Positions 559-21,280 of a stretch of DNA of 64,000 bases are shown one piece after another. Both the position numbers and the translations under genes were made by a program. Origin of the DNA: Octopus vulgaris (Eukaryota); assembly GCA_951406725.2 (NCBI GenBank), contig OX597830.1, forward strand, positions 74,276,001 to 74,340,000, read 5' to 3'. Under the pieces are notes generated by a model. The model ran no database searches, was not told the origin of the DNA, and saw only the letters and a program-made list of their open reading frames with translations. Position 1 is the stretch's first letter, and each line of letters starts with the position of its first letter.

Positions 559-720
559 ATATATATATATGTATATATTTTTGAGCGTTAGACGATATAC
601 CAGAAAACCCTATTTTGTCGGGTACGTTCTGAGTCTGCGCAGTGATTTGAATAGTTTAGAAAGAGCAATTTAATAGACGCATGTGCCTCTATTGTTGTGC
701 GCTTCCCATAATAACAGGAA

Positions 721-793
721 TCTTACTGAAGAGCCTACCTGAGTAAATAAATATTATTTTTATTGCTGAAATAGGCGAAACTGCAGTCTAAGA
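721..793 (+). ncRNA. Type I minimal hammerhead ribozyme
   Basis: TCTTA-CTGAAGA-GCCTA..loop..TAGGC-GAAA-CTGCAG-TC^TAAGA: helix I TCTTA/TAAGA, helix II GCCTA/TAGGC, palindromic helix III ACTGCAGT, GUC cleavage after 788. Confidence 0.92.
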
Positions 794-1124
794 AGAACTA
801 AGTTTGTAAAAGTTTTTAATTTTCATCTCATTAAATTTATCCAGCTTTTGTGTATCTAGTACACACTTCGCCTTTTAATGTACTTATATATGAATAATAT
901 ATGGCGTGTCCTAGAACACCAGCGATAATAAGTAATTTTATTGTATCGCATTTGACTTTGTTTACGTATTTTCTCGATAAATGTTTGAGCCTTAGACGAT
1001 ATACCAGAAAACCCTATTTTGTCAGGTACGTTCTGAGTCTGCGCAGTGATTTGAATAGTTTAGAAAGAGCAATTTAATAGACGCATGTGCCTCTATTGTT
1101 GTGCGCTTCCCATAATAACAGGAA

Positions 1125-1197
1125 TCTTACTGAAGAGCCTACCTGAGTAAATAAATATTATTTTTATTGCTGAAATAGGCGAAACTGCAGTCTAAGA
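1125..1197 (+). ncRNA. Type I minimal hammerhead ribozyme (second tandem copy)
   Basis: Identical to 721-793; predicted cleavage after 1192. Confidence 0.92.
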
Positions 1198-1369
1198 AGA
1201 ACTAAGTTTGTAAAAGTTTTTAAATTTCATCTCATTAAATTTATCCAGCTTTTGTGTATCTAGTACACACTTCGCCTTTTAATGTACTTATATATGAATA
1301 ATATATGGCGTGTCCTAGAACACCAGCGATAATAAGTAATTTTATTGTATCGCATTTGACTTTGTTTGC

Positions 1370-1422
<53 letters not shown>

Positions 1423-1435
1423 TAGATAGATATAT

Positions 1436-1466
<31 letters not shown>

Positions 1467-1539
1467 TAGACAGATATGTATGTATGTATATATGTATATA
1501 TATGTATATATACATACATATACACATATATGTATATAT

Positions 1540-20106: not shown

Positions 20107-21280
20107 TACTATACATTAAAGACCCGTCGTTGCCGGGTCATAGTGCTAGTGCATGTATATATATATATGTATTATATGTGTACATATTACATGAACTTCT
20201 ATATATATACATCTACACATAAAATACAAAATACAAAGTTATATCTTGTTATCGCTAGTGATAACAATACTCAAAATATATAACAGACTGGAATTGTAAG
20301 CCTGTCTCTTGTAATTTCGATCAATTGTATCTTGTTCTCCCTCTTGTATAGAAGTGTGGCTACAATCCAGCCTACCTCTACTTCTGGTGGGAGGAGGGGG
20401 GGCATTAAAAAATTTTTTTCGGGACGTCCTACTTCCCAGATATTAAGGTAAAAATAAAATATTTACACTTTTGAAGTTCAAGTCGAGTACTCCCTTGCAC
20501 GCTCCGTTGACTCGAACCTTGCTTCTATTGTGGCGAATTTACCGCCTCTGATTAGATACCTTTCATTGTCGCACCAAGACACTTTTCGAAGGTGCTTTCC
20601 TCCATGTGTTCAAATCTTACTTTTTTCTCTACATTGTATACTTTATAGACAATAGTCTTTTCTTTAATTTAATTTTTTATTATCCATCTGGACTATTCCA
20701 TTTCTGCACGCTAATTTTATTTTTAATTTATTCCAATTCATGTGAAACCACTTATTCAAGTTCAAATCATTGATGCAATTTTATACCAATTGCTATTTTT
20801 ACTATTGTTATGTTACTTTAGTTTTATTTTAATTATTACTTACTACATACAATTCAATTGTTATTATCATTTTTATTGTTAAAGTGAAAGAATCTGACAT
20901 AAAATAGAGAAACGCATTTGTTTCACTTTTAACACGTAATACTGAAATAGTGGAGAAGATATGATATTGCTATGGGCTCGCTCTAGGCAAGAAGTTGAAC
21001 ATTTTTGCCCATGAAACTACATGGACCCTAAGTAAGGCATGTGTAAAATTTGAATGGAATTGGTTGTGTAGTTCTCAAGTTTTAGGGAATCGTAGAGGAG
21101 AAGATATGATATTGCTGTGGGCTCGCCCTAGGCAAAAAGTTCAAAATCTTTTTTGCCGATAACACTCCCCGGACCCTAAGTAAGGCATGTGTAAAATTTG
21201 AATGAAATTGGCTGTGTAGTTCTCAAGTTTTAGGGAAACACACAGACAGACACACATTCTCAGTTTTATATATATAAAGA
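20107..21280 (-). mobile_element. Non-autonomous Helitron-like element
   Basis: The minus strand starts TCTTTATATATATAAAACTGAG (5'-TC). The other end has hairpin GACCCG-TCGTTGC-CGGGTC with CTAGT nearby (20121-20150). An internal 145-bp tandem duplication starts at 20952 and 21097. Confidence 0.65.

Follow-up and report, generated by a model that had tools for sequence, protein, structure and literature searches.

A dispersed, hammerhead-bearing repeat family of Octopus vulgaris, very probably a retrozyme-type element mobilised by Penelope-like elements

Metazoan non-LTR retrozymes are described as short tandem arrays with units of 150-450 bp, those of mussels measuring 350-390 bp (Cervera and de la Pena 2020, PMC7229834), and according to the text of a 2020 review their repeats carry no motif that names a helper (PMC7761336). 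A route by which animal retrozymes return to DNA has been proposed rather than demonstrated, and the helper has gone unnamed. For vertebrates, a preprint whose sampling, as its text sets it out, is free of molluscs reported cleavage in only one of nine Xenopus dimers (Li, Clavereau and Pollet 2026, 10.64898/2026.07.22.740005), and for Penelope-like elements (PLEs) the reverse transcriptase (RT) has been found to start inside its own RNA, downstream of the hammerhead, on AT-rich DNA (PMC11167929). A literature search found no paper on an octopus retrozyme, and the supplements of PMC7229834 and of the 2026 preprint could list cephalopod repeats; in an Octopus vulgaris repeat paper, the main text holds no occurrence of ribozyme or retrozyme. 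The class itself is already published, and the octopus family that we describe here is a further member of it.

Like the metazoan non-LTR retrozymes of PMC7229834, the octopus family has short, non-coding tandem units of low GC, each with one type I hammerhead and a short palindromic helix III, in a genome that also holds PLEs. It differs from them in that cleavage and circles were shown there and are predicted from sequence here, in the 32-nt hairpin extension carried by its loop 2, and in its fixed 3' end, random 5' ends and (TA)n target, none of which the available text of that paper describes for metazoan retrozymes. With the vertebrate retrozymes, as the preprint presents them, it shares the defining two consecutive units with whole hammerheads as well as the dispersal of monomers, dimers and short multimers over chromosomes; however, homology to named pLTRs was reported for Xenopus, where 24 of 57 families hit Repbase, whereas none to the local PLEs was found for the octopus unit, and while Li et al. 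lean to local amplification, the octopus copies fit amplification during insertion. As far as the consulted accounts of EN+ PLEs of the Neptune and Poseidon type go (PMC11167929, 10.1101/2021.04.23.441226, PMC4209133), the family resembles these in its internal RT start downstream of the hammerhead, its partial tandems, its 5' truncation and its (TA)n or AT-rich targets, but it lacks an ORF and the 30-40-bp tail, uses one main start site, rarely has inverted arms (2 of 126 insertions) and carries a canonical rather than a minimal hammerhead. Judged by its sequence, the octopus element falls under the definition of non-LTR retrozymes (PMC7229834; 10.64898/2026.07.22.740005), and it behaves like a non-autonomous PLE, not like an autonomous one.

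The array and its hammerheads

The window, by which we mean the whole stretch of 64,000 nucleotides analysed at G000:C17:74276001-74340000, contains at positions 573-1371 an array for which TRF reports a period of 404, 2.0 copies and 98% matches. The original prediction had named two head-to-tail, non-coding units with about four differences, and this description holds: within 581-1371 the units differ at exactly four places (587/991, 620/1024, 820/1224 and 964/1368), and the 404-bp unit, whose GC content is 33%, has a longest ATG ORF of 58 aa on the plus and 31 aa on the minus strand. Altogether the array is 1.96 units long; it begins at unit position 197, stops at about 176-181, is bordered left and right by (TA)n, and lacks an LTR-like layout. 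A left (TA)n-type target flank (559..578) is followed on the plus strand by a 5'-truncated first unit (581..788, unit positions 197-404), whose left boundary is ambiguous between 573 and 581, then by the stretch that would yield the predicted linear or circular monomer RNA (789..1192, 404 nt from cut to cut by unit comparison) and by a terminal partial unit (1193..1371, positions 1 to about 176-181), which stops at the fixed 3' end of the family; beyond it lies the right (TA)n microsatellite, delimited by TRF at 1373..1539, as the target. From this arrangement, the 5' end of the first unit would be the place where cDNA synthesis stopped, and the right end of the terminal unit the place where reverse transcription started. 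A conserved plus-strand hairpin, read by eye in the consensus circular fold of nine monomers, lies just upstream of the fixed entry site at 922..949 in the internal copy and at 1326..1353 in the terminal copy, where its end is 15 nt short of position 176. On either side of the array, at 262-560 and 1790-2200, are SINE-like repeats of very high copy number, the latter dominating the read depth, and a 148-bp tandem of two copies with 88% identity is found at 20948-21237.

The complete hammerhead claimed for each unit is present as well. The motif TCTTA-CTGAAGA-GCCTA..TAGGC-GAAA-CTGCAG-TC^TAAGA occurs in both, with C17 at 788 and 1192, which bears out the exact 404-nt spacing foreseen for the monomer, the predicted distance from cut to cut being 404 nt. 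By motif and fold, the first type I hammerhead (721..793, plus strand, predicted cut after 788) is composed of helix I (721-725/789-793), the core CUGAAGA (726-732), helix II with its hairpin extension (733-737/772-776), GAAA (777-780), helix III (780-781/786-787) with a UGCA loop, and GUC (786-788); the second (1125..1197, plus strand, predicted cut after 1192) is identical to it, 404 nt on. Rfam Hammerhead_1 matches 720-794 and 1124-1198 with 30.6 bits each (E 1.9e-5), below the gathering score of 34, so that a scan of the window at this threshold gave no hit; the shortfall in bits probably stems from the 32-nt insertion in loop 2. What had to be amended in the original prediction is the label of a minimal type I ribozyme, since its helix III, of 2 bp and closed by a UGCA loop, and its full, hairpin-extended helix II make it canonical-type. 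Within the loop 2 hairpin, 20 of the 25 letters at 746-770 (unit 358-382) match a sequence just upstream of the 3' end of the second of two local PLE families described below, a likeness that is not significant against shuffles (fraction 0.27).

Across the family, 127 of 134 whole hammerheads have an intact core, a figure that is biased upward because part of the sample was collected by a pattern containing the hammerhead, and the cut base H17 was C in 77 of them, A in 54, T in one and a gap in two, but never G. We rejected the idea that C or A at this base is a ligation scar left by RT error, because all units within an array agree at this base and it follows lineages. Among 18 sequences from the five subfamilies, 96.8% of the cells in the hammerhead pairing do pair, and three pairs are changed on both sides, with C-G to U-A and U-A to A-U in helix II; this count of both-side changes was reached in 29 of 500 shuffles, which ignore relatedness. 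The constrained hammerhead fold, at -10.3, lies about 8 kcal/mol above the local minimum of -18.5 and below the -5 kcal/mol criterion of Li et al., and in the predicted folded circle the hammerhead helices have a probability near zero. The monomer is 59-64% paired in its minimum-energy fold and no more stable than shuffles (z -0.8 to -0.9), and two ACUGCAGU palindromes are computed to pair at -11.1 kcal/mol. A short palindromic helix III has been associated with cleavage as a double hammerhead (PMC4209133), and the sequestered single-hammerhead fold together with the palindrome pairing fits such a course, so that cutting as a double hammerhead in the multimer, through the helix III palindrome, followed by a stable closed monomer, is plausible from the models. 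The reported monomer cleavage of invertebrate motifs that have two pairs and a tetraloop (PMC7229834) tempers the requirement of a dimer for cleavage.

Dispersed copies, their ends and their template

In the 2.8-Gb assembly, a DNA search gave 790 candidates, 40 of which were scored, and exact patterns matched 185 times for a hammerhead 19-mer and 426 times for a 3'-end 20-mer, with no match for the reversed-pattern controls. The first 100 of the 426 3'-motif matches correspond to 72 loci, three of them chance and 69 real, from which we estimate about 300 insertions. Out of these, 126 were parsed, after one second fragment, two segmental duplicates and three chance motif hits had been removed from 132 segments. 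They fall into four subfamilies (A-D), 81-94% identical to one another, to which a relaxed pattern added a fifth, E, of 423 nt and 75-81% identity. Monomer length is 397-405 nt in 24 arrays as against 423 nt in subfamily E, copies range in length from 0.07 to 5 units, and five monomers examined for coding capacity have a GC content of 32-34% and a longest ATG ORF of 79 aa. The array at 573-1371 represents a single insertion within a non-coding repeat family that carries hammerheads and is dispersed over the genome. A one-off local duplication, or a sequence confined to PLE terminal repeats, had been named beforehand among the readings that would undo the retrozyme proposal; the estimate of about 300 dispersed insertions, and the finding that none of 126 is joined to a Penelope ORF, speak against both. 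Subfamily E (L287, L288 and L289) departs from A-D in that two of its three copies were inserted as two inverted arms. Relatives of the unit that have diverged further, to about 78-80%, adjoin two insertions (L002:1200-1420 and L133), and their sequence suggests further related families and nested targeting.

The 3' end of the insertions is fixed, since 121 of 126 end 172-181 nt past the predicted cut, 83 of them at 176 and 26 at 181. Moreover, (TA)n lies within 6 nt of the 3' end in 116 and within 8 nt of the 5' end in 94 of the 126 insertions, and target-site duplications are unreadable within such flanks. The two end classes, being 5 nt apart and both TA-like, can be explained by microhomology with the target. 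By eye, the entry site is bracketed by the unit hairpin at 134-161, both sides of which are changed in subfamily E, and by a well-kept segment at 170-193. In contrast to the 3' end, the 5' ends are spread evenly over the unit (101 elements, KS p=0.81); of the permuted start points that had been anticipated, the variation thus applies to the 5' end and not to the 3' end. Inverted arms of the family's own sequence were present in 2 of 126 insertions, and a second-start tail 30-40 nt on was nearly absent. Two insertions, L003 (G000:C1:98061430-98061502) and L287 (G000:C15:22156891-22156964), end exactly at the hammerhead cut and continue into (TA)n, which could mean that a cut linear RNA was primed at its 3' end, or else could reflect TA microhomology.

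The length of the copies was studied in the 69 loci anchored on the 3' motif, which extend from C1 to part of C4. Lengths of at least 60 nt fit an exponential with a mean run of 376 nt (n=55, KS p=0.89), 42 of the 69 insertions cross at least one cut site, and the 5' ends within 10 nt of a cut site number three against 3.5 expected, without a pile-up. Since cut sites are crossed in this manner, the template was continuous through the ribozyme site, and on this sequence record a circle that had been sealed or a transcript left uncut would qualify, whereas a linear monomer produced by cutting would not.

Differences between the units bear on the choice between these templates. In counts that leave out six rearranged arrays, variants occurring in at least two arrays are present in every unit of the array in 117 of 132 cases, and array-private variants in 33 of 129. 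Across 51 arrays, 58 of 7170 sites distinguish the terminal from the internal copies; just two of these differences recur, while plain linear inheritance predicts recurring unit-specific variants. Divergence within arrays is 0.7% (106/15522), as against medians of about 1-5% to arrays of the same subfamily, and one five-unit array has no difference in 1604 sites. Array-wide variants together with few recurrent unit-specific differences point to repeated reading of one monomer. The simplest form that such a monomer could take is a circle, although gene conversion, or an RT that jumps between identical RNAs, would leave similar traces, and we hold a circular template to be a good probability.

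The same comparisons speak to a satellite route (Li et al. 2026), in which short SINE-like or solo terminal-repeat pieces insert and tandems form later by local unequal crossing-over. Local amplification would likewise homogenise units, and the four-unit array L106 has a variant confined to two adjacent units, which needs a template switch or a local duplication. Against this route, a single smooth exponential describes the lengths, from 60 nt up to several units, and elements shorter than two units already have private variants in both redundant parts (21 of 81), with 84 of 89 multi-array variants common to both parts. In the four arrays with at least four copies of a site, moreover, 16 variable columns are single-unit and five are shared, four of the latter being one substitution spread over several columns by the aligner. 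We therefore regard later crossing-over as very unlikely and retain amplification during insertion from a repeatedly read monomer.

Penelope-like elements as candidate helpers

The genome contains two young Neptune-like PLE families, 57% identical to each other, with an RT, a CxxxxCxxC zinc finger and a GIY-YIG domain in an intact protein of 781 aa, and both end at (TA)n shortly after a hammerhead-like motif, with a tail. The first (L061-L077, e.g. L064:268-3968 at G000:C6:133343500-133351500) is young and abundant; an upstream ORF of about 479 aa without a Pfam hit overlaps its 781-aa RT/GIY-YIG frame (L064:1626-3968), its 3' region has repeated CCAAT and TGACGTC boxes and a TATA, and in its hammerhead-like motif UUGAUAA replaces CUGAUGA. 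The second (L243-L255, G000:C1) gave 964 exact motif hits and often consists of two divergent arms, only one of which ends with a tail, of about 40 nt; read by eye, the first 100 listed matches of this local PLE include 31 divergent pairs.

With the proteins of these two PLEs as queries, tblastn gave no PLE ORF in the window and 10 kb upstream of it and none joined to the 126 insertions, and at eight of the 126 loci PLE fragments lie nearby, all separate from the retrozyme by coordinates. By blastn, the unit has no similarity to 50 GIY-YIG loci, and at 44 loci of the second PLE family only adjacent retrozyme pieces match it. A search for a parent PLE gave no hit with a pattern taken from the loose end in one run, and the 54 hits of a relaxed hammerhead pattern comprised subfamily E and scattered unrelated sequences. 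In 16 alignments of PLE ends with the unit, the shuffle fractions ranged from 0.03 to 0.74, giving no link to a specific PLE. Both PLE families, like subfamilies A-D, have a GCATTT hexamer a short way before their end; as a shared PLE end signal it serves as a lead only, since the alignments were not significant against shuffles and subfamily E is without it. These data make it extremely unlikely that the unit is the pseudo-LTR of a further autonomous PLE and the copies its 5'-truncated ends. A fixed 3' end past the hammerhead and (TA)n targeting are PLE traits, to be sure, and the sample covers 126 of about 300 loci, but no insertion in it runs into a PLE ORF, the nearby fragments are separate, the unit is unlike both sets of PLE loci apart from adjacent retrozyme pieces, and copies longer than one unit continue into the next unit without any ORF.

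Retrozyme pieces were seen in (TA)n directly after PLE 3' ends at L003, L161/L247, L164/L252, L189/L256 and L199, which shows a shared target. TPRT by LINEs normally starts at the RNA's 3' end. The start of the octopus family, by contrast, lies inside a unit that continues in the template, and two of three subfamily E copies and 2 of 126 others have PLE-type inverted arms. For these reasons we give next to no credence to a microsatellite-targeting LINE as the helper in place of a PLE, despite the lack of a sequence link to a PLE in the end alignments and the abundance of LINE families in octopus according to the text of PMC13282606. The internal start described for PLE RT (PMC11167929) matches the fixed 3' end of the octopus family. 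Thus, by analogy with these elements and assigned by behaviour only, a Neptune-type PLE is the likely helper, and we conclude that the family is very probably a retrozyme-type element mobilised by PLEs.

Transcription and a proposed mechanism

None of the runs recorded as RNA has the unit; contigs of 15 holders guessed to be RNA carry it, although contigs cannot show strand, ends or circles. Those of runs X1, X2, X3, X7 and X10, whose RNA origin is likewise a guess, cover the unit in several subfamily variants, with longest lengths of 371-395 nt, and no joints on the unit were reported in contigs of runs guessed to be RNA. At position 932, every listed contig reads T, the private base of the array being G. 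An snRNA-type promoter is not supported, since a matrix built from five distinct U1/U2 upstream sites scores 21-26 on itself and at most 2.2 in the unit, with a best score of 10.6 in any subfamily; a Pol III box B was not found in the unit, and transcription by read-through is possible. The U1 and U2 genes themselves (L294-L317) occur in many copies, some of them clustered, and have a common ATCAGT-centred element about 57-60 nt upstream of the start.

Taken together, we consider it probable that the array encodes a predicted self-cleaving 404-nt monomer, likely a circle, and that a Neptune-type Penelope enzyme, borrowed by the element, likely copies this monomer into (TA)n, starting at an internal site that does not vary. 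A transcript running through two hammerheads would be cut at both, perhaps as a double hammerhead by way of the ACUGCAGU palindrome, and by analogy with the retrozymes of coral, mussel and axolotl a host ligase would close the monomer. The PLE endonuclease would then nick (TA)n, and the RT would start 176 nt (or 181 nt) beyond the cut and just downstream of the conserved hairpin, at the end that is fixed in the genomic copies. From there it would run round the template and fall off at random, on average after about 376 nt, which would leave copies of 0.07 to 5 units as in the observed length distribution. Only copies with two whole hammerheads, such as the array at 573-1371, would regenerate the monomer. 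As to the original prediction of a reverse-transcribed circRNA concatemer mobilised by PLE machinery, the genome-wide copies bear out a retrozyme-like family, PLE-type mobilisation and a monomer-length template, and the circle is predicted only.

The principal competitor to this scheme keeps the PLE helper and takes an uncut linear read-through transcript as the template, with RT jumps or gene conversion lengthening and homogenising the arrays and with a hammerhead that is regulatory or protein-aided. Such a template fits the fixed internal start and the absence of stops at the cut sites equally well, and in vitro an anole PLE used mainly uncut RNA as its substrate, hammerhead cutting being unnecessary in the account of PMC11167929; the variant common to two adjacent units in L106 and a hammerhead fold that is not the predicted minimum also agree with it. 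However, it would take a further step for arrays to outgrow their source, and the 68 exact internal junctions genome-wide, with at most five per locus and, for the subfamily-A sequence, at most two, revealed no long master array of subfamily A or C. The kept core and the compensatory changes across 23% divergence likewise point to selection for cleavage, and just two of the 58 unit differences recur. We judge the uncut transcript to be an unlikely, if serious, alternative to a self-cleaved monomer. The fullest form of the proposal, in which the copies are a genomic record of rolling-circle TPRT, with a Neptune-type enzyme, a self-cut circle of 404 nt, a hairpin and AT-rich entry, one start base, a sealed junction that is read through and a constant fall-off, has in our estimate about an even chance of being right.

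Random fall-off and array-wide variants constitute genomic evidence for a monomer-length template, and the octopus family offers a defined substrate in the 404-nt monomer, a predicted start base at 176/181, a (TA)n target and two young, intact candidate enzymes. The PLEs of this genome make two-armed insertions, while those of retrozyme subfamilies A-D are mostly one-armed; if the rolling-circle reading is true, the single entry site and the one-armed insertions would single out the minimal signal that first-strand priming requires in cis. What is gained is a clean case for testing circle-templated TPRT rather than a new kind of element and, if confirmed, the family would represent a compact system for writing RNA circles into DNA.
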